Of a stretch of 64,000 bases of DNA, positions 171-34,089 are shown piece by piece (within the stretch, counting starts at the first letter, position 1; each line of letters starts with the position of its first letter). Origin of the DNA: Salmonella phage vB_SenS-3. Under the pieces are notes generated by a model. The model searched no databases and was not told the origin of the DNA. It saw only the letters and a list, made by a program, of their open reading frames with translations. The DNA is taken from sequence record OR896822.1; one strand, given 5' to 3'. A program made the translations under genes and the position numbers.

Positions 171-333
171 ATTCTCCCTCCTTAATAAGGAACTCTTTCC
201 ATTCTGCTGTATCCTCATAGATAACGCAGAAATCATCACTCTTCCATGAGAAGTCATCAGTAGCAAATTCGAAACGGTAGCACCAACTACCGTCTGGCCA
301 TACTAAAAGATCACACATGCTTTTCTGGGACAT
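151..333 (-). CDS. hypothetical small acidic protein
   Basis: C-terminal part of track ORF 151..474; internal ATG at 333 has GGAGGG RBS; upstream part overlaps Sir2 gene. Confidence 0.3.
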   Translation of the reverse strand: MSQKSMCDLLVWPDGSWCYRFEFATDDFSWKSDDFCVIYEDTAEWKEFLIKEGEYGEEDF

Positions 334-1162
334 AAATATTTCCCTCCATAAAAGCTTCAACTTGATCAATAAAGTGTTTATTACCAAAAACTTCGGCAGC
401 TCCAGCACGCCATACAGTAACACCACGTTTCTCATATTCAAGCTGTTCATCATAGCGAACTTGAGGGTTAACAACCATCATCTTAGTTCCACGACATACA
501 GCAGGGAATAGTTCCCAGTTGAAGTCAATCACTTGGTTGCTACAACCTACTACAATAACCATATCATTGCTAGTAAGTGTATCAAACAGGTTAATCTGAC
601 CCATATACCACGGAGCCGTCTCACCAAAGAATGTTACGTTTGGTTTTACCCATTCGTAATCTTCAGGAACAATTGCAGTGTATCCAACATCTTCGATGAT
701 TTGATTGCGACCCCGACGATAGATCACCTCTTTCAAGTACCCGTGAGCGTGAATGATTTCATCACGAGGGATACCAGCACGTTCCAGAAGGTCATCAACG
801 TTAGTAGTGAAGTTCTTCACGCTATCCGCACCATAACGCTGGAACCATTCTGCAATTCGCAGATGGGCAATGTTAGGCTCAACAGTCTGTAATTCCTGAC
901 GACGCATGTTGTAGAACTCATGAGTCTTGAGATACAGATCGTTACCCTCTTCATCAATGCCAGGGAAACGAGCACTGAAGTAGTTAGGATCATCTTCACC
1001 ACAGAAGCGACGGAAGCCAGCTTCAAAGTTAGGCAAGCTACATACTTCCTCTAGATCGTACTCATCCCACAAAGATTTTCCACTAGCAGTATCAGTACGG
1101 AAAGCACGAACACCACTATCAACACTTAAACCAGCACCACTAACAATGATTAGTCTACGCAT
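311..1162 (-). CDS. Sir2-family (sirtuin-like) NAD-dependent protein
   Basis: 283 aa; GAGLSVDSG Rossmann motif, TTNVDDL and HAHG motifs typical of Sir2 fold; zinc-ribbon cysteines not obvious. Confidence 0.7.
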   Translation of the reverse strand: MRRLIIVSGAGLSVDSGVRAFRTDTASGKSLWDEYDLEEVCSLPNFEAGFRRFCGEDDPNYFSARFPGIDEEGNDLYLKTHEFYNMRRQELQTVEPNIAHLRIAEWFQRYGADSVKNFTTNVDDLLERAGIPRDEIIHAHGYLKEVIYRRGRNQIIEDVGYTAIVPEDYEWVKPNVTFFGETAPWYMGQINLFDTLTSNDMVIVVGCSNQVIDFNWELFPAVCRGTKMMVVNPQVRYDEQLEYEKRGVTVWRAGAAEVFGNKHFIDQVEAFMEGNIYVPEKHV

Positions 1163-1537: not shown

Positions 1538-1819
1538 TTAGTTCTGTACTGTAAATTCATTCTTATCACAGTGAGCATAATAATACCCATACATACGATA
1601 AATTTTCACAGCCTTAGTAGACCCCTTCGATTCTTCATAATCAATCCAGAGCCACTTGTCTTTACCTACATAATGTACCCGAAACTTCTTAACTTTCTTA
1701 TCATTCCATGTTGCAACAACACGACGATAATCAAATCCGCCCAACCAATCTAGAGCCTTACGTTCTTCACTAGGCTCTCCAAGATGGGAAACATCTACTT
1801 TCGGAAGCAATTCGCTCAT
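1538..1819 (-). CDS. hypothetical protein
   Basis: 93-aa ORF directly downstream of nrdD on minus strand. Confidence 0.45.
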   Translation of the reverse strand: MSELLPKVDVSHLGEPSEERKALDWLGGFDYRRVVATWNDKKVKKFRVHYVGKDKWLWIDYEESKGSTKAVKIYRMYGYYYAHCDKNEFTVQN

Positions 1820-1917: not shown

Positions 1918-3792
1918 TTATTTAGCGCGAATGTCTTGATGTTTCACTCGACCCATAACCTCATGTTGTTTACCTGGGTTAAACGGACGAGCACCTGGAT
2001 TTCCAAGATATCCACAAACTCGACGAGTTACCTCAAGAGTCTCAGGATCATGATTGCCACAAATTGGGCATTTGAAACCATCCTCAGAAGCTATAGTTTC
2101 ACCCAAGAACCCACATTCCCCACAAGAGTCTACTGGAGTATTAATACCGAAGTAATGAACTTTACTTGCAGCATAGTTAATAACCCATTCCAGTGCATCA
2201 GGGAATCGTTTCATATCAGGCAATTCCACATAGGAAATGCACCCACCAGAAGCAATTGGGGTAAAGTTAGACTCATAATCGAACTTCACGTTCGGAGCAA
2301 CCTTACGCTCCACATCAAGGTGATGAGAGTTAGTGTAATATCCTTTAACCAGAATATCTTCATGCTCTGGGAAATACTCACGATCTAGACGACAGAAGCG
2401 ATCACATAGAGATTCAGATGGTGTAGCATACAGACTATACCCTAATTGAGTCTCTTCCTTCTTCTGATCAGCACGATCACGCATGTATTGTAGCACACGT
2501 TGAACGAACTTGATACAGGATTCAGACATTGTATCTACATCTTTACCAAACATGAACTGTAACATTTCGTGGCAGCCAATATATCCTAGAGATACAGAAG
2601 CACGCTTGTAGAAATGATCAAATACATATTCATCTGGCCCCAGACGTAATCCAAAGGCTCCTGACATATAGAGGATGGGCGCAGCTTTAGCTTGAATGTA
2701 CTTTAAGCGATCAACCCTCCACTCCAATGCTTTTAACGCGGTATCCACACGCAGCTCAAGCAGATCGAAGAATAGATCAATATTACCTTCCGCTTCGATA
2801 GCAATTCGAGGTAGGTTTACAGAAACAACGCCTAAGTTGTTACGACCAGAAGTTTCACCATCTTCCGCAGCAGCCAGGAATGAACGACAGCCCATAGAGA
2901 CTTTGTAGTCTCCCGTAACTTCTACAACCTTATCATAACTGATGTAGTCAGGATACATACGTTCAGCAGTACATTTCATAGCTAACTTCTTGATATCATA
3001 GTTAACATCACCAGGTTTCATGTTTACGCCATCACGCAAAACAAATACCAGTTTAGGGAAGATAGCTGTACGTTTATTGATACCCAAACCATCCATACGC
3101 ACTTCTAGGATTGCTTTCTGTACAAGACGTGCTTCCCAAGAAGTTCCTAGACCAAACCCAAAGGTAATAAACGGACTTTGACCATTAGAGTTGAACATCG
3201 TATTGATTTCATACTCCAGGCCCTGACAGGCATCGTAAACTTCTTTCTCAGTCATTTCCGTAGCCATTACAGATGCTTTAGCTTCATCCTTAGTCCAACG
3301 CTTTGCAAACGCATGATTCTTATCATAAGACTTACGAACATAAGGAGCCAATACTTCATCTAATCGGTCTACAGAAGTACCCCCATATTGATGTGAACTA
3401 ACCTGAGTGATAATCTGAGCTGTGATAGCAGCCGCAGTAGTAATAGAGTTTGGTGTACTGATTTCAGCATTACCAACCTTCATACCATTCTTCAACATAT
3501 CTTCCAAAGCAACCAGGCAACAGTTAGTCATACCTAACGCAGCGTAATCAGCATCATGGAAGTGAATATCACCAATCATGTGAGCATTTCGAATCTGGAT
3601 TGGCATTTCTTCCAGAATCAGATGTTTACTCAATTCCCCTGCAAGCATGTCCCTTTGTGTAGGGAAACGTTCGCTTGGTTTGTTCGCATTATTAAAGAGT
3701 AGCTCTTCATCTGCTGATCCTTCGATAATTTCTTTGCAGTTTCGAATTAAGGACTGCACTCCTTTATACTTTAGTTCTTCATTGCGATTCAT
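1918..3792 (-). CDS. nrdD: anaerobic ribonucleoside-triphosphate reductase (class III)
   Basis: 624 aa; C-terminal glycyl-radical motif RVCGYLG and CPICG zinc site. Confidence 0.9.
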   Translation of the reverse strand: MNRNEELKYKGVQSLIRNCKEIIEGSADEELLFNNANKPSERFPTQRDMLAGELSKHLILEEMPIQIRNAHMIGDIHFHDADYAALGMTNCCLVALEDMLKNGMKVGNAEISTPNSITTAAAITAQIITQVSSHQYGGTSVDRLDEVLAPYVRKSYDKNHAFAKRWTKDEAKASVMATEMTEKEVYDACQGLEYEINTMFNSNGQSPFITFGFGLGTSWEARLVQKAILEVRMDGLGINKRTAIFPKLVFVLRDGVNMKPGDVNYDIKKLAMKCTAERMYPDYISYDKVVEVTGDYKVSMGCRSFLAAAEDGETSGRNNLGVVSVNLPRIAIEAEGNIDLFFDLLELRVDTALKALEWRVDRLKYIQAKAAPILYMSGAFGLRLGPDEYVFDHFYKRASVSLGYIGCHEMLQFMFGKDVDTMSESCIKFVQRVLQYMRDRADQKKEETQLGYSLYATPSESLCDRFCRLDREYFPEHEDILVKGYYTNSHHLDVERKVAPNVKFDYESNFTPIASGGCISYVELPDMKRFPDALEWVINYAASKVHYFGINTPVDSCGECGFLGETIASEDGFKCPICGNHDPETLEVTRRVCGYLGNPGARPFNPGKQHEVMGRVKHQDIRAK

Positions 3793-17607: not shown

Positions 17608-18237
17608 TAATAGTGGGGTGCCGAAACCACTTATGTAACAACACTGCCGTCCTAGTATAATAGGTATTATTAGGGCTTCACCGCCTGAAGATGTGGGTTC
17701 GAGTCCCACGGTCGGAAAGAGTTGGATAACTGGTGCTTCTAATGGCGAAGCAATCGCAGGCAGTTGCGCACTGCCAAAACCACGCGGTAGTTGGTTCCAG
17801 GCTAACCAACCACTCTTGAAAAGTATATACTACGGTTTTGCTTGTTCAGGAAGCTTCGCATCGAAAATCGGAGGTGCGATTTTATCAGACCGCGTGGAGG
17901 ACGTCTCTCCGTTAAGTGACGAAAAGTGGGACGATTCAGGTAGAGCTGGATATGGAACACCTATACATATGCGGAGTGCGCACAAAGCATATTGCGGTGG
18001 TACTAAACGAAATTAGGAGTCATGACCTGCACAAGTTTAGTATGTCATAACCGATGTACATTCAGTACAAAAACCACTGAAGCTAAGATAGATAGTCACC
18101 TTGACTTAAACTGGAAGATATTGTCTGACGGAAGGGCTGCAGAGCTTAATCTGAGGGGGCTGACCCTACCTACCGTCGGGTATCTTTAAGAGTTCTTACG
18201 AGAACTCTTAAAGATACCTAAACATTAAGGAATACTG
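17608..18237 (+). ncRNA. candidate structured RNA (GC-rich, tRNA-like T-arm at 5' end, several hairpins)
   Basis: No RBS or promoter-proximal start; GTGGGTTCGAGTCCCAC T-arm at 17693-17709 without matching acceptor stem; local GC rise; many stems. Confidence 0.3.
18179..18218 (+). other. perfect 18-bp stem / 4-nt loop hairpin
   Basis: GGTATCTTTAAGAGTTCT / AGAACTCTTAAAGATACC inverted repeat just upstream of the ORF at 18238. Confidence 0.7.
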
Positions 18238-20217: not shown

Positions 20218-20246
20218 TTGCTTGAATGCTAAATTCTCTGTATAAT
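20218..20246 (+). promoter_or_regulatory. early-type promoter (TTGCTT N17 TATAAT)
   Basis: Upstream of nadR-pnuC. Confidence 0.55.
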
Positions 20247-20276
20247 ATATTTATAAATTTGAGAGAGGAATCAAAT

Positions 20277-21332
20277 ATGATTAAGACTGGTCTAGTAATT
20301 GGTAAGTTCGCACCATTAACGCGTGGTCATATTAACCTAATAAACACAGCAGCAACTATGTGTGAACGAGTTATTGTTGTAGTTAGTCATGATAATCGTT
20401 GGCTGGATAAGCAGAACACACGTGATAAGGAAGTATTACAGTTAAAGAATCGACTTCGTTGGTTAGAACAAACTTACGCGGATATTGAGCACATTTCGGT
20501 AGAGTACATTATTGAAGATGATATTCCTGAATATCCGAATGGTTGGCCGGAATATGCTAGAATCCTTAATGAAAATTACGGACATTTGCCTGAGATCACC
20601 GTTTTCTCTAGCGAACTAGACTATGATGCAGAATATAAGAAATATCTGCCGAAGTTTGGTCATTATATTGTAGATTCTGATCGGACTCGTGTTCCAATCT
20701 CAGCTACAATGATTCGTAATGATCTTATGAAGTATTGGGAGTTTCTTCCTAGCGTAGTTCGTAAAGATTACGTGCGTAAGGTTGTAATCATTGGGACTGA
20801 AAGCTCGGGAAAGACTACTTTAACAAAATACCTTGCGAAGCTATACAACACTTCGTGGGTAGAAGAATATGGTCGAACGTATTGTGAAGTTGATCTAGTT
20901 GGTAACGAAAATCTGCTTACCAGCGAAGATTATAGTAAAATTGCGTTCAGACACAAAGAGCTAGAGTTTGAAGCAGAACGTACTGCAAATAAGATCATGT
21001 TTGTGGATACAAATGCTTTTATTACTGAGTTCTACCACAGACTTTATGAACATAGTAAGAATCCTGTGGTTACAGCAATTGCAAAAGAAGAACATTATGA
21101 TTTAGTAATTGTTCTAGCGCCTACTGTCAAGTGGGTAGATGATGGTTTACGTATTAACTCCGATCGTTCAATTACTTCTGAACTATTCGAGCAGATGAAG
21201 AAAGAATTTCCAAATCAGTTCCCTGAAGGGCGTACTGTTTACATCGACTCTCCGGACTACAAAGTTCGTATGGACGAAGCAGTAAACGCAGTAGACTGGC
21301 TGATTCATCACTTTAACGTTGGAGAGTTTTAA
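20277..21332 (+). CDS. nadR: NadR-like bifunctional NMN adenylyltransferase / ribosylnicotinamide kinase
   Basis: GKFAPLTRGH nucleotidyltransferase motif plus IIGTESSGKTT P-loop; ATG 20277. Confidence 0.75.
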   Translation: MIKTGLVIGKFAPLTRGHINLINTAATMCERVIVVVSHDNRWLDKQNTRDKEVLQLKNRLRWLEQTYADIEHISVEYIIEDDIPEYPNGWPEYARILNENYGHLPEITVFSSELDYDAEYKKYLPKFGHYIVDSDRTRVPISATMIRNDLMKYWEFLPSVVRKDYVRKVVIIGTESSGKTTLTKYLAKLYNTSWVEEYGRTYCEVDLVGNENLLTSEDYSKIAFRHKELEFEAERTANKIMFVDTNAFITEFYHRLYEHSKNPVVTAIAKEEHYDLVIVLAPTVKWVDDGLRINSDRSITSELFEQMKKEFPNQFPEGRTVYIDSPDYKVRMDEAVNAVDWLIHHFNVGEF

Positions 21333-21333
21333 T

Positions 21334-21990
21334 ATGACTAACTATCTCGTAAATGACTTTAAAAACTGGAAACCTCTGGAATATCTGTGGCTGTTCATAG
21401 CGGTTGTCTTCATTAGTTTAGCAAACTATAATGGTACAGCTCTAGATTGGGCTACTGCAATAACCAATGTGGTTTGTGTTATTCTGGTTGCAAAAGGACG
21501 TATTTCCAACTATATTTGGGGCTTAGTGGGTGTTCTTACATATGGTATTACAGCTTTAAACGCAGATCTTTATGGTAACGCTGCACTAAACCTGCTATAC
21601 TACGTTCCTATGCAGTTTTATGGAATGTACTTATGGCATAAAAATAAGCCAAGTAATCTGCCAGATGTTCCAACTAAGGTTCTGACTAAAGCCCAAGCTC
21701 TGCTGACTCTAGGGATTCTAGCAGTAGCCACGTTAGGGTATGGTAGTTTCTTAGCTACTACGGCTGATCCATTTCCAATGTTGGATGCATTTACTGCTGT
21801 AGGTAGTGTGATCGCTATGTGGCTTATGGTTAAGCAATATGCCGAGCAGTGGCTGATCTGGATTGCTATTAACATTGGTACTGTGTACATTTGGCTTGTA
21901 ACTGCTCAATCTACAGGTGCATCTTATGCAATCCTAGCAATGTGGCTAGTATTCTTAGGTAACTCTATTATAGGAGCCTATAAAGGATAA
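21334..21990 (+). CDS. pnuC: PnuC-family nicotinamide riboside transporter
   Basis: Multi-TM protein with PnuC-like NxxxWxxG and LYYVPMQFYGMYLWHKN segments; immediately after nadR. Confidence 0.75.
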   Translation: MTNYLVNDFKNWKPLEYLWLFIAVVFISLANYNGTALDWATAITNVVCVILVAKGRISNYIWGLVGVLTYGITALNADLYGNAALNLLYYVPMQFYGMYLWHKNKPSNLPDVPTKVLTKAQALLTLGILAVATLGYGSFLATTADPFPMLDAFTAVGSVIAMWLMVKQYAEQWLIWIAINIGTVYIWLVTAQSTGASYAILAMWLVFLGNSIIGAYKG

Positions 21991-30870: not shown

Positions 30871-31164
30871 ATGAAACGTTATCTTTCTGTCGTATTCCAA
30901 ACGGGTGGTCAACGCTACACTTATGAATTTCCTGAGTCCTGGAAAATTAAAGAAGGTGATCAAGTTGTTGTATTAACACCTCGTGAAGGCTTCAAAGTAG
31001 TAACGGTTAAACAAGTATTTCCAAAAGATCACGAACCATCTAAGTCTATTCAGTACAAGATGATTCATGGTCTAGTTCGTAAAGTACCACGAACTGAGGT
31101 AGAAGTAGATAAGACTGGTGAAGCTAAATACCAGTATACTTCTTACTTAGACGAGTTGTTATAA
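30871..31164 (+). CDS. hypothetical protein
   Basis: 97 aa; promoter at 30812. Confidence 0.45.
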   Translation: MKRYLSVVFQTGGQRYTYEFPESWKIKEGDQVVVLTPREGFKVVTVKQVFPKDHEPSKSIQYKMIHGLVRKVPRTEVEVDKTGEAKYQYTSYLDELL

Positions 31165-31370
31165 TGAGAATTACTTTCACAGAAAAGATTATGGGCAATG
31201 GTGTTATGATCATTACCGCATGGGATGGTAATCAGTGGTGTAGTGTTTCAGGTATTAAGCCTGAAGAACAAACACTAGAAAATATCTCAAAGATTAAGCG
31301 AAGAATGGCAGAACGTGCACGACTTCCAGGTGCTCCTAGAAATGGTAAACGTTCTGCAATTAAATGTTAA
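31164..31370 (+). CDS. hypothetical protein
   Basis: 68 aa, ATGA overlap with previous gene. Confidence 0.4.
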   Translation: MRITFTEKIMGNGVMIITAWDGNQWCSVSGIKPEEQTLENISKIKRRMAERARLPGAPRNGKRSAIKC

Positions 31371-31371
31371 T

Positions 31372-31448
31372 GCTTCGGTAGCTTAGCGATCTAAAGCACT
31401 CGGCTGATAACCGAGAGATCGGGGGTTTAAATCCCTCCCGGAGTACCA
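31372..31448 (+). tRNA. tRNA-Ile (anticodon GAT)
   Basis: Anticodon arm CTCGG CTGATAA CCGAG, T-loop TTTAAAT, acceptor with G-U pairs, CCA. Confidence 0.6.
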
Positions 31449-31544
31449 AATTTAGGAAGTAAGACTATGCGTCCAGGAAAGTTTAAAAAAGCTAATTGGT
31501 CTAAAGAGTATAAAGAATACTTACTTAGTCTAGTAAAACATAAT

Positions 31545-31617
31545 AGTTAGTTGGCAGAGAGGTTATGCACCTCCTTCATACGGAGCGCCTACAGTGGTTC
31601 AAATCCACTACTAACTA
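31545..31617 (+). tRNA. tRNA with anticodon CAT (third CAT tRNA), CCA not encoded
   Basis: Acceptor AGTTAGT/ACTAACT, anticodon loop TTCATAC, T-arm AGTGG TTCAAAT CCACT. Confidence 0.45.
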
Positions 31618-31984
31618 CTAAACAGAGGATCAGATCATTGTACCAGATCCTGCTGAGAAGAGAGTCCACATTCTATAAATGGCCGGGCGTGACAGCAGGA
31701 AGTAGACTGCAACTCCATGCTATACAGGAGTATAAATGTAGAAGCTAGGGCTTTAGATAGCCATTGTCTTAGCGTGAGCAATCACGTAGTTGCAACAGAC
31801 CAGGGGATAGCAACGTTAAAATCAAAGCTCCTGTGCTTATTAAACTGAATGGGACTATCAATCCACAAGCCGGACTACGAGCGATTATCGGGTATTCACT
31901 TAATAAGCAAGCCTGCCTTCCAGTTTTTATCTTGCTTCTGGGTTAACAAAAAGCTGAGCCAAATTCTAGCATCAGGGAGATCTA

Positions 31985-32353
31985 ATGAAAGCATATCAAA
32001 GTCTTAAGTCTGGCGTAATTAACCTTGTTCATAACAATCAGATCATTCAACTATATTCTAAAGATGGTGAACTTAAACAGAAAGTTCTAGTCGAAGATCT
32101 AGAAGGTATCACACCTCACTTTGACCCTGAGGCCTTTCGCATTGTAGATGTGGAAGTGATTCCTCAAGTCGAGGGTGGTCAGCACCTAAATGTCAACGTG
32201 TTAAGCCGTGATCAGCTTTTGGATGCACAGAAACATCCTGAAAAATATCCTCAGTTGACCATCCGTGTCTCTGGATATGCTGTTCGATTTAACGCATTGA
32301 CGCGTGAACAACAGAACGACGTTATTAGTCGTACATTTACTCAGGCGATATAA
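31985..32353 (+). CDS. grcA: GrcA/YfiD-like autonomous glycyl-radical cofactor protein
   Basis: 122 aa; C-terminal [25 protein letters not shown] matches glycyl-radical domain fingerprint. Confidence 0.7.
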
Positions 32354-32434
32354 TGGGGTTTGGATATGATTTCTCCCAGCTACGCAAGGTAGTCGAGCAA
32401 ACTCCATTTATCTCCCAAGTTTTAGGAGAAATGT

Positions 32435-32734
32435 GTGGATCGAGCATTAAGACGCCATCACCGGCAACGTGTGAAAAACAATCGCAAAAAGTATTGGACA
32501 GTCTTCCCACATGAAGAAAGTCCTAAGCGGTTAGGCATTATCACTACCACTCCTTGCATCTGTTCTTGTTGGATGTGTGGGAATCCTCGCAAATACTATA
32601 AGAATAGTAAAGCAGGTATGAAAATCTCGGAGATTAAAAAGATGGATGCAATGATTATGGGCATCACCTTTACAGGCGGTATCTCTGATGAATTCGACGG
32701 TTTTGTAACTCAGGATATTGTCGAAATTATCTAA
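32435..32734 (+). CDS. hypothetical Cys-cluster protein
   Basis: GTG start with AGGAG RBS; basic N-terminus, CICSCWMC cluster; not a canonical CxxxCxxC radical-SAM motif. Confidence 0.4.
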   Translation: MDRALRRHHRQRVKNNRKKYWTVFPHEESPKRLGIITTTPCICSCWMCGNPRKYYKNSKAGMKISEIKKMDAMIMGITFTGGISDEFDGFVTQDIVEII

Positions 32735-32743
32735 TTAATAATA

Positions 32744-32778
32744 AACCCCAGCTATTGAATAGGTAGTCTGGGGTTTTC
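32744..32778 (+). terminator. rho-independent terminator
   Basis: AACCCCAG...CTGGGGTTTTC. Confidence 0.6.
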
Positions 32779-32801
32779 TTGTAGTATGTAGGATTTTCGA
32801 A

Positions 32802-32987
32802 ATGAAAATTTTTAAAGTGAACTATAGCGGCCTGTGGTTAGGTGGTACAGCTATTGTCGTTGCAGAAACTGCAGAAGAAGCAATCGAACTGGCTAGAAAC
32901 CATAGAAGTTCTATAGAATTCGAGGATGTGACAGTAGAAGAACTCCCGAGCAGTGGGGTAGTATACAACGACAACGGAGATTACTGA
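32802..32987 (+). CDS. hypothetical protein
   Basis: 61-aa ORF. Confidence 0.35.
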   Translation: MKIFKVNYSGLWLGGTAIVVAETAEEAIELARNHRSSIEFEDVTVEELPSSGVVYNDNGDY

Positions 32988-33045
32988 TGTTATATTTTGA
33001 AGTTCGCCCACATTAAGTTAATTTAAAAGACTTAATGGAGGTAAT

Positions 33046-33441
33046 ATGAGCCGTACATATCGTAAACAATCTGGTGATCGTCACTGGCGTGATGCACATC
33101 GTTCTACTTATAATTTTCATAGCACTAATATCCGTATTCCGTATATCTACACGGATAGGGATGGTAGGCAGTGGAAGTATTATCAAGTTCGATCCAATGA
33201 AGCATGGGCTAAAACTTGGGATGAAATTGAGAAGGAGATTCAGGAAAATATCATCCGTAACGAGAAGAAAGATGGGCACTGGTGGGATTCTGTTAGTAGG
33301 AATGTTAAGTGGCATTCTAACAAAATGGTTCGTCAGGGAAACCGTCGCGAACTTCATCGTGTGATGAAAGATCCAGAAAATTACGACTATAATCGCGATC
33401 ATGATCTGCGTAAGCGTGGGTTATGGTGGTGCTACGACTAA
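33046..33441 (+). CDS. hypothetical Trp/Arg-rich protein
   Basis: 131-aa ORF. Confidence 0.45.
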   Translation: MSRTYRKQSGDRHWRDAHRSTYNFHSTNIRIPYIYTDRDGRQWKYYQVRSNEAWAKTWDEIEKEIQENIIRNEKKDGHWWDSVSRNVKWHSNKMVRQGNRRELHRVMKDPENYDYNRDHDLRKRGLWWCYD

Positions 33442-33458
33442 TTTCATAAATAATTCAT

Positions 33459-33487
33459 TTGCTAAAACCCTCTCCTTTTGATATAAT
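33459..33487 (+). promoter_or_regulatory. early-type promoter (TTGCTA N17 TATAAT)
   Basis: Same architecture. Confidence 0.55.
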
Positions 33488-33517
33488 ATTTATATAAATT
33501 GATGAGAGGGCTTTGAA

Positions 33518-33790
33518 ATGAAAGAAGCAGAAATTAATGAAATGGCTAGAATATTCATCGTTTCCTATATGCAAGGCAGTTGCAATAGTTTATTCGAGTC
33601 TGCTATAGTATTTCAGGAAATGTTAGCCGAGAAAGGCGTACATATGGAAGATACTGAAATTGAAGATCTTCTAATGGAAACTTGTAGTAGTGCTGAAGTC
33701 TTCCAGTGTGGTAACTGTAATTGGTGGTGTCCAGAGCATGATCGTTCTGAAGAAGGTTCCTACTGTTCCGATTGTGAAGGAGAAGAATAA
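33518..33790 (+). CDS. hypothetical Cys-rich acidic protein
   Basis: 90 aa; CGNCNWWC...CSDC. Confidence 0.45.
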   Translation: MKEAEINEMARIFIVSYMQGSCNSLFESAIVFQEMLAEKGVHMEDTEIEDLLMETCSSAEVFQCGNCNWWCPEHDRSEEGSYCSDCEGEE

Positions 33791-34089
33791 TGAATAAGTT
33801 TATTATTGCTCTAGTAATTTCAGCAGTTAGTTTCGGTTCTCTGGCATCTACCAAAGTTTCTATGAAAAATGGTAATGTTAAAGTTCAGCAGAATGGCATT
33901 ACCACCGAATATGGTAAAGTACGTGATGTAAAAGAACGTAATGGCAAAGTAGAAATATATACTAATAAAAACTTCTCTACTCCGGCTGTTACTGTTAGTA
34001 AACGTGGTGAAATCACTACTCAACGTACTAATAGTTCTGATTCTTTTACTTGCCGTTATGACTGCGGCTTTGAAGGTGAAGATGAGTAA
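33790..34089 (+). CDS. hypothetical secreted protein
   Basis: Signal peptide MNKFIIALVISAVSFGSLAS. Confidence 0.45.
   Translation: MNKFIIALVISAVSFGSLASTKVSMKNGNVKVQQNGITTEYGKVRDVKERNGKVEIYTNKNFSTPAVTVSKRGEITTQRTNSSDSFTCRYDCGFEGEDE

Follow-up and report, generated by a model that had tools for sequence, protein, structure and literature searches.

A Y06I-type autonomous glycyl-radical cofactor gene in the T5-like Salmonella phage vB_SenS-3, a phage without a recognisable activase of its own

Stand-alone glycyl-radical cofactors have been described in both bacteria and phages. E. coli YfiD (also called GrcA) and the Y06I protein of phage T4 were shown to receive a radical from the host activase of pyruvate formate-lyase (PFL) and to restore PFL that had been cleaved by O2 (Wagner 2001, via PMC8683613). 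Residues 61-127 of YfiD copy the fold of PFL 693-759, and the radical on G102 of GrcA is passed to C419 of PflB (PMC8683613, PMC12338860). The disordered residues 1-60 of YfiD have been found to be important for the binding of cleaved PFL and for the installation of the radical (PMC8683613). Glycyl-radical chemistry also enters phage biology through the class III ribonucleotide reductase (RNR) NrdD. The combination of nrdD and nrdAB without nrdG is common in phages, and T5, EPS7 and SPC35 have such an RNR layout (Dwivedi et al. 2013, PMC3653736).

The locus described here lies in a window of 64,000 nucleotides from Salmonella phage vB_SenS-3 (OR896822.1). Over positions 31000-34000, the window is 99.9% identical to phage PMBT36 and 99.8% identical to phages vaffelhjerte and RA40. 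The phage and these relatives are T5-like siphoviruses (Demerecviridae, Markadamsvirinae, Epseptimavirus) with Salmonella or E. coli as hosts. Whole-genome checks were made on the relative Salmonella phage vaffelhjerte (110,831 bp, 194 features annotated), which outside the 31000-34000 region is mostly 97-99.9% identical to the window. In vaffelhjerte coordinates the window starts at about 60,027, passes through the tRNA region and the pre-early region and reaches about 12,650. The features of the locus are collected in Table 1.

Table 1. Coordinates of the grcA-like gene, its neighbours and nrdD in the window
Feature	Position	Strand	Details
tRNA-Ile(GAT)	31372-31448	+	ARAGORN, Rfam; upstream, same early tRNA-region transcription unit
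tRNA-Met(CAT)	31545-31618	+	ARAGORN, Rfam; upstream, same early tRNA-region transcription unit
Shine-Dalgarno GGGAG, 5 nt upstream of the grcA ATG	31975-31979	+	From sequence; RBS at the equivalent site in phage 5 (AJ604531)
grcA-like gene, Y06I/vs.6-type autonomous glycyl-radical cofactor	31985-32353	+	ATG start, 122 aa plus stop
N-terminal half, aa 1-55, phage-type	31985-32149	+	Outside the bacterial GrcA profile match
Glycyl-radical domain, aa 61-121, equivalent to PflB 698-758 and YfiD 66-126	32165-32347	+	phmmer alignments, Foldseek
99-aa basic Cys-motif protein, T5 ORF053/T5.055, phrog_4499	32435-32734	+	GTG start, AGGAG RBS
Intrinsic terminator, hairpin and U-run, end of the unit of grcA and the 99-aa ORF	32743-32776	+	dG -19 kcal/mol, z -4.1
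nrdD, class III (anaerobic) ribonucleotide reductase, second glycyl-radical protein	1918-3792	-	624 aa; RVCGYLG at 2022

On profile and alignment evidence, the product of the grcA-like open reading frame (ORF) is classed as a PFL-type autonomous glycyl-radical cofactor of the phage Y06I branch. The initial annotation had read the ORF as GrcA/YfiD-like from the fingerprint RVSGYAVRF. Both the ORF and the motif are present, the Arg codon of the fingerprint lying at 32264 and the codon of the predicted radical residue, Gly97, at 32273-32275, and the profile of the phage GrcA family, phrog_1209, matches over the full length of the protein (E 1.1e-46; aa 1-122 on positions 1-121 of 121). The Pfam profile Gly_radical (PF01228) was also matched, with E 4.6e-18 and 66.1 bits against a cut-off of 22.2, and aligns aa 62-103 with positions 65-106 of its 106. 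Among PDB sequences, the best phmmer match was E. coli YfiD/GrcA (6OWR; E 3e-29, aa 50-121), and E. coli PflB (1H16/1CM5) was matched with E 1.8e-26, aa 61-121 lying on 698-758. Within this stretch 47 of the 61 residues are identical to PflB (about 77%, counted from the alignment), and identity to E. coli GrcA/YfiD is about 80%. An AF2 model of the whole protein has a mean pLDDT of 76.6. When its C-terminal half was submitted to Foldseek, the YfiD NMR structure 6OWR (E 5e-6) and the PFL structure 2PFL (E 2e-4) were recovered.

The N-terminal half of the protein sets it apart from bacterial GrcA. The NCBIfam equivalog profile of bacterial GrcA, TIGR04365, gives 117.8 bits against a cut-off of 170, because the N-terminal half is divergent and only aa 54-121 align (on positions 58-125); this shortfall therefore places the protein in the phage Y06I branch and not among the bacterial GrcA equivalogs. 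In a three-way alignment of the phage protein, g126 of Yersinia phage phiD1 and E. coli GrcA, the sequences are nearly identical from E63 to their ends. Their N-terminal halves align only loosely, the MKAYQ start and scattered residues being common to the two phage proteins. AF2 predicts a beta meander for this half (pLDDT about 85), for which a Foldseek search of the PDB gave no match. As a sole query the N-terminal 60 aa returned two fragments only, and the homologue set was taken from the full-length search. By analogy with YfiD 1-60, the N-terminal half probably helps to recognise cleaved PFL, and because it is divergent this recognition could differ from that of YfiD.

Homologues of the gene are widespread. 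In a phage collection, tblastn found them in 1583 records across several families, including about 440 records of T5-likes at >=80% identity, T4-likes at about 52% over the full length, jumbo phages, and T4-like phages of Aeromonas and Vibrio. The T4-type (Tequatrovirus) homologue phiD1 g126, annotated as GrcA, is 59% identical to the phage protein. Lengths range from 116 to 137 aa, and the ORF in the window is stand-alone, unfused to a catalytic barrel. In an alignment of 36-37 phage and bacterial homologues, all 34 invariant columns fall in the C-terminal half and include R94, V95, S96, G97, Y98 and A99; across 36 homologues there is little or no variation in the RVSGYAxRFN core (R94-N103 except V100), with G97, or in the duplicated beta strand. 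The gene is clearly under purifying selection, with dN/dS of 0.07-0.18 against phage 5 and DT57C and substitutions distributed 13/3/48 over the three codon positions. Hundreds of T5-like genomes keep its frame open, and no frameshifts or stop codons were seen in grcA of natural isolates.

The grcA-like gene and the downstream gene for the 99-aa protein are transcribed from the early tRNA-region promoter, and the unit ends at the hairpin listed in Table 1. In phage 5 (AJ604531), the tRNA region was described as promoter P11, ORF 2.19, ORF 2.19.1, tRNA-Ile and ORF 2.20, followed by tRNA-Met, ORF 2.21 (grcA), ORF 2.22 and ter2, and the gene order in the window is the same. Phage 5 and DT57C have a conserved copy of the terminator sequence, which AJ604531 labels 'transcription terminator ter2'. 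In both phages the tRNA-Met gene abuts grcA, whereas in the window the two are separated by a 366-nt spacer (31619-31984) that varies among Epseptimaviruses. No RNA element was found in this spacer: Rfam reported only the two tRNAs, and the fold z-score is -1.5.

The second glycyl-radical protein of the phage, NrdD, had been noted 30 kb from grcA by its RVCGYLG motif, and it was located about 28-30 kb away on the minus strand. It is matched by the Pfam profiles NRDD (E 1.4e-172) and Gly_radical, and the E. coli-type NCBIfam profile NF006732 gives 840.7 bits against a cut-off of 657. Identity to E. coli NrdD is 54%; the Zn-ribbon Cys pairs (CGECGF...CPICGN) and the C-terminal tail (RVCGYLG...RPFN..KQ.EV..RVKH) are conserved. 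Because of this identity, the conserved radical region and the NF006732 score above cut-off, activation of phage NrdD by host NrdG appears plausible. The RNR genes are arranged as nrdD, phoH, nrdA and nrdB, and nrdG is absent.

The claim that the phage encodes no NrdG- or PflA-like radical-SAM activase was borne out by dedicated searches. E. coli NrdG (its sequence matched to the K-12 record) and PflA were used as queries in tblastn and phmmer (--max), and no homologue was found in the window or in the complete vaffelhjerte genome, the best hit being a 22-aa patch at E 0.025. A true NrdG homologue would have shown, since tblastn reached phage NrdGs down to 31% identity. Neither nrdG nor pflA is among the 194 features annotated in vaffelhjerte, and the full genome of this relative showed no nrdG that would undo the claim. 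A six-frame regular-expression search for CxxxCxxC in ORFs of >=60 aa found three places in the window. Besides the 99-aa ORF next to grcA, these are two sites in frames that related records do not annotate as genes, at about 53367 (+) and 45874 (-). In genes other than the 99-aa ORF, no in-frame CxxxCxxC was found. An ORF downstream of nrdD (1541-1819, minus strand) was considered as an nrdG remnant and rejected. Its 9 identities over 22 residues to NrdG 87-108 (GKDxWxW.Y; phmmer E 0.025-0.04) were judged to be chance, it has no NCBIfam match even at E 10, its sole significant PHROG match is its own family phrog_7953, and a terminator and a promoter lie between it and nrdD.

The same absence is visible across phages. 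In the phage collection, NrdD-like proteins occur in 2910 records and NrdG-like proteins in 2273. Among Salmonella phages the figures are 398 against 126, a gap of 272, against 273 Salmonella T5-like records matching the locus. PflA-like genes were found in 42 records of the collection; the best three share 100% identity with E. coli PflA and resemble host DNA, and no T4-like or T5-like phage is among the 25 listed of these 42 records. The absence of an activase is real, is a trait of the phage group and has already been published.

By analogy with T4 Y06I, the phage GrcA likely acts as a spare part that is activated by host PflA and rescues host PFL cleaved by O2. Reliance on host activases had been suggested in the initial annotation, and this suggestion is supported by T4 Y06I, which is activated by the host PFL activase (PMC8683613). 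As the phage lacks an activase, its GrcA would depend on host PflA and its NrdD on host NrdG. In the proposed mechanism, Gly97 of the RVSGYAV loop would lose a hydrogen to the host radical-SAM activase PflA. The segment aa 61-121, which closely copies PflB 698-758, would dock into host PFL that has been cut at Gly734 by oxygen, and the radical would be handed to Cys419 of PflB, bringing PFL activity back. The phage could benefit in that the production of acetyl-CoA/ATP and formate would be kept up in the micro-oxic gut. Formate would also serve as the reductant of the E. coli-type class III RNR that the phage encodes. It is reportedly the hydrogen donor of E. coli NrdD, a class III RNR (Mulliez 1995). 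Since formate feeds class III RNR, a phage with NrdD might profit from live PFL, and a formate link from PFL to NrdD is what we infer. Against such a formate benefit, many NrdD-bearing phages (Vibrio, Felix-O1-like) appear from organism counts to lack GrcA.

Could the protein instead be a spare part for another glycyl-radical enzyme, such as oxygen-cleaved phage NrdD or host TdcE (2-ketobutyrate formate-lyase)? TdcE has a PflB-like C-terminus and could be an additional target, and some GenBank records name the phage gene '2-ketobutyrate formate-lyase'; rescue of TdcE would extend the PFL mechanism, not replace it. NrdD is encoded by the phage and is likewise cleaved by oxygen, and a repair role of GrcA-like proteins for further glycyl-radical enzymes has been put forward as speculation (PMC8683613). 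The domain must, however, fit the barrel of its target, and BLASTP of the grcA protein against phage NrdD gave no detectable similarity (E 14), as opposed to about 77% identity to PflB. A role as spare part for phage NrdD was rejected for this reason, and the target would specifically be of the PFL type. The earlier proposal of a spare part for oxygen-damaged glycyl-radical enzymes thus holds for PFL-type enzymes and fails in its generic or NrdD form, and an enzyme other than PFL as the target is quite improbable. A decoy or regulator that soaks up host PflA or displaces the radical domain of intact PFL, redirecting fermentation, would accord with an N-terminal half that is unlike bacterial GrcA and predicted to be folded, and with early expression from the tRNA region. 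GrcA can reportedly act on full-length inactive PflB in vivo, and DH801 (PflB G734A plus GrcA) still makes formate (PMC12338860). A pure decoy would nevertheless have no need of the radical glycine and the whole loop, which are invariant, and the T4 homologue restores activity in vitro (PMC8683613); such a role is decidedly improbable. The protein is so close in sequence to host PflB/GrcA that horizontal capture is suggested, and the tRNA region is a mosaic with variable spacers, as might be expected if grcA were a decaying or neutral hitch-hiker taken from host pflB or grcA and functionless for the phage. The purifying selection, the frame kept intact among T5-like genomes and the breadth of the phage homologues described above speak against this reading and make it highly improbable.

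A further alternative would make the neighbouring 99-aa protein an activase of GrcA, of miniature or novel type, or else its Fe-S partner. The two genes are co-transcribed up to a common terminator, and CICSCWMC in the window copy literally fits C-x3-C-x2-C (C41, C45, C48). The initial annotation had stated that CICSCWMC does not fit CxxxCxxC, which is incorrect to the letter; its view that the protein is no activase nevertheless stands. The spacing is taken to be accidental because the first Cys is unconserved: CxCxxC is present in 146 of the 149 best family members, only 41 of these 146 have a Cys at the first position, and in 61 members the three Cys of CxCxxC are the only ones. At 99 aa the protein is too short for a radical-SAM core, which takes at least about 150 aa, and neither it nor ten relatives matched Radical_SAM, Fer4_12, Fer4_14 or any other Pfam or NCBIfam profile. 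Other phages do not link the protein to GrcA either: one relative, in a different phage contig, has a DNA methylase and Cpn10 as neighbours, and in Providencia phage PR1 a terminator follows directly after grcA. The protein was rejected as an activase, the alternative is effectively refuted, and on present evidence there is no functional tie of the 99-aa protein to GrcA.

Whether the 99-aa protein has homologues had been raised as a check, and there are many. Close homologues number 88, nearly all in records of T5-type phages or in similarly sized contigs, and a profile search of the wider family gave 2100 cluster representatives at E <=1e-3 and 471 at <=1e-10. The family comprises small basic proteins (median 88 aa) with the consensus RALRRHHRxRLK...TPxxCSCWMCGNPRRYF..T.QE, from which CSCxMCGNPR is read as the conserved motif of a large uncharacterised family. 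The AF2 model of the protein, with a pLDDT of 52, is unreliable. As a guess, it could be a small Zn-binding, nucleic-acid-binding protein. Substitutions in its ORF fall at third codon positions. A 53-aa ORF (32353-32514, phrog_31464) was rejected as a gene for the part that overlaps the 99-aa ORF. In the overlap, 8/8 substitutions are at the first codon position of the 53-aa ORF, which is the third position of the 99-aa ORF, and in phage 5 a 1-nt indel shortens the 53-aa ORF to 23 codons.

Beyond the spare-part reading, phage GrcA and the activase-less NrdD might form one module, and the N-terminal half might give a property that is absent from host GrcA; this extension is rather unlikely. If it were true, the phage would secure formate for its class III RNR by keeping host PFL alive under micro-oxic conditions, and the anaerobic dNTP supply of T5-like phages would hinge on host PflA and NrdG. 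The N-terminal half, which the T4 and T5 lineages have in common, may, for example, let the phage protein capture cleaved PFL or PflA more quickly. An added property of this kind would explain why the phage has its own copy despite host grcA.

The feature is real, was rightly interpreted and is already known, and its anatomy shows no departures. The label "autonomous glycyl radical cofactor (GrcA)" is found in RA40, DT57C (citing T5) and many other records. GenBank also holds the phage gene under the mislabels "pyruvate formate-lyase", "formate acetyltransferase", "acetyltransferase-related protein" and "ribonucleotide reductase subunit", and ORF 2.21 of AJ604531 (grcA) is labelled "putative formate acetyltransferase". 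A fitting name would be "autonomous glycyl-radical cofactor (GrcA/Y06I-like)", and labels that refer to PFL, a formate acetyltransferase or an RNR subunit are unsuitable. T4 Y06I made the principle known in 2001, and the nrdD-only phages did so in 2013; the locus matters little beyond right annotation. It is an example of large enterobacterial phages bringing along parts that repair oxygen damage in host fermentation, and leaning on host radical-SAM activases. This reliance predicts that phage growth in the gut depends on pflA, pflB and nrdG, and such host-gene dependencies could bear on phage therapy in anaerobic conditions.

Compared with known systems, the phage protein is like T4 Y06I (vs.6) in its size of about 120 aa, its two-part build and its full-length match to phrog_1209. 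Both are phage-borne without a PFL activase, and T4 and T5-like phages would therefore both depend on host PflA. The C-terminal 50 residues of the T4-type protein are identical to those of E. coli GrcA, whereas the T5-type protein has about 12 substitutions there. The genes also differ in context: T4 has nrdG next to nrdD whereas the T5-like phage has nrdD without nrdG, and the GrcA gene lies in the vs region in T4-type phages and in the tRNA region in the T5-like phage. E. coli GrcA/YfiD (6OWR, TIGR04365 spare_glycyl, IPR011140) is likewise stand-alone, at about 125 aa, and shares the radical loop and the duplicated beta strand; its N-terminal half is barely alignable with the phage protein. 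Host grcA is under anaerobic and acid regulation. Unlike it, the phage gene is virus-encoded and expressed from phage early promoters. The radical domain of PflB (693-759; 2PFL/1H16) has the same fold as the corresponding part of the AF2 model, with G734 equivalent to Gly97, but the phage protein lacks the 690-residue catalytic barrel of PflB. By itself it cannot be an enzyme, and the PFL and formate acetyltransferase labels are over-annotations. The RNR genes show no difference from the nrdD-only arrangement described in phages (Dwivedi et al. 2013, PMC3653736), of which this phage is another member.

ORF99, a protein of 99 aa with a cysteine motif encoded downstream of the GrcA-like glycyl-radical cofactor gene (grcA), belongs to a family with at least 2100 representatives of clusters at 50% identity, for which Pfam and NCBIfam hold no model. 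The members are small basic proteins with the N-terminus RRHHR and three conserved cysteines, and the motif CSCxMCGNPR is nearly invariant among them. ORF99 ends in …VTQDIVEII, and most relatives (104 aa) end in …EDERPDL; this difference is due to indels in the repetitive DEFDGF/GEG region. The C-terminal tail is evidently unconstrained.

The 53-aa ORF that overlaps ORF99 forms a separate PHROG (phrog_31464) and is annotated as '????' in phage DT57C. Within the overlap, all eight substitutions fall at the first codon position of the 53-aa ORF, which is the third of ORF99. In phage 5, a 1-nt indel shortens the counterpart to 23 codons. The annotation of the 53-aa ORF is probably an artefact; if the ORF is real, it is no more than a short leader.

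Features in and around the tRNA, grcA and nrdD regions
Feature	Coordinates	Strand	Remark
Sir2-family protein	311-1162	-	two small genes downstream of nrdD
93-aa ORF	1541-1819	-	directly downstream of nrdD
nrdD	1918-3792	-	class III ribonucleotide reductase
'tRNA-SeC', 74 nt	17645-17718	+	anticodon TCA; ARAGORN
NadR-like adenylyltransferase and PnuC transporter	20226-21990	+	tRNA region
Spacer, 366 nt	31619-31984	+	between tRNA-Met and grcA
Conserved segment of spacer	31712-31775
43-aa ORF	31717-31848
53-aa ORF	32353-32514	+	starts on grcA stop codon (ATAATG); overlaps ORF99
ORF99	32435-32734	+
C-terminus of ORF99	32700-32734	+

Upstream of grcA, the spacer is variable among Epseptimaviruses, is absent from DT57C and phage 5, and returned no match in an Rfam search. 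One segment of it is 74-86% conserved in Klebsiella phage Sugarland, Pectobacterium phage DU_PP_V and Bacteriophage Eos. This segment coincides with the start of the 43-aa ORF, for which a 42-aa CDS is annotated in the Sugarland record. The tRNA with anticodon TCA is labelled tRNA-Sec or tRNA-OTHER in related records. Its length is below that of a genuine selenocysteine tRNA, and it may be a UGA-reading tRNA.

The 3' side of nrdD carries a terminator-like hairpin of its own, followed by a TATAAT-like promoter and the next ORF. In T4-like phages, nrdG lies at the place taken here by the 93-aa ORF. A 22-aa patch of this ORF resembles NrdG 87-108 (GKDxWxW.Y), with 9 of the 22 residues identical (phmmer E ~0.03). 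That the ORF is a very old nrdG remnant is still formally conceivable; the resemblance has no profile backing, and the patch is therefore treated as chance.

The E. coli-type NrdD model aligns with the phage NrdD only from profile position 88. The phage enzyme thus lacks the N-terminal ATP-cone that is present in host NrdD. The NAD-metabolism genes (Sir2-family, NadR-like and PnuC) are typical of T5-like phages.
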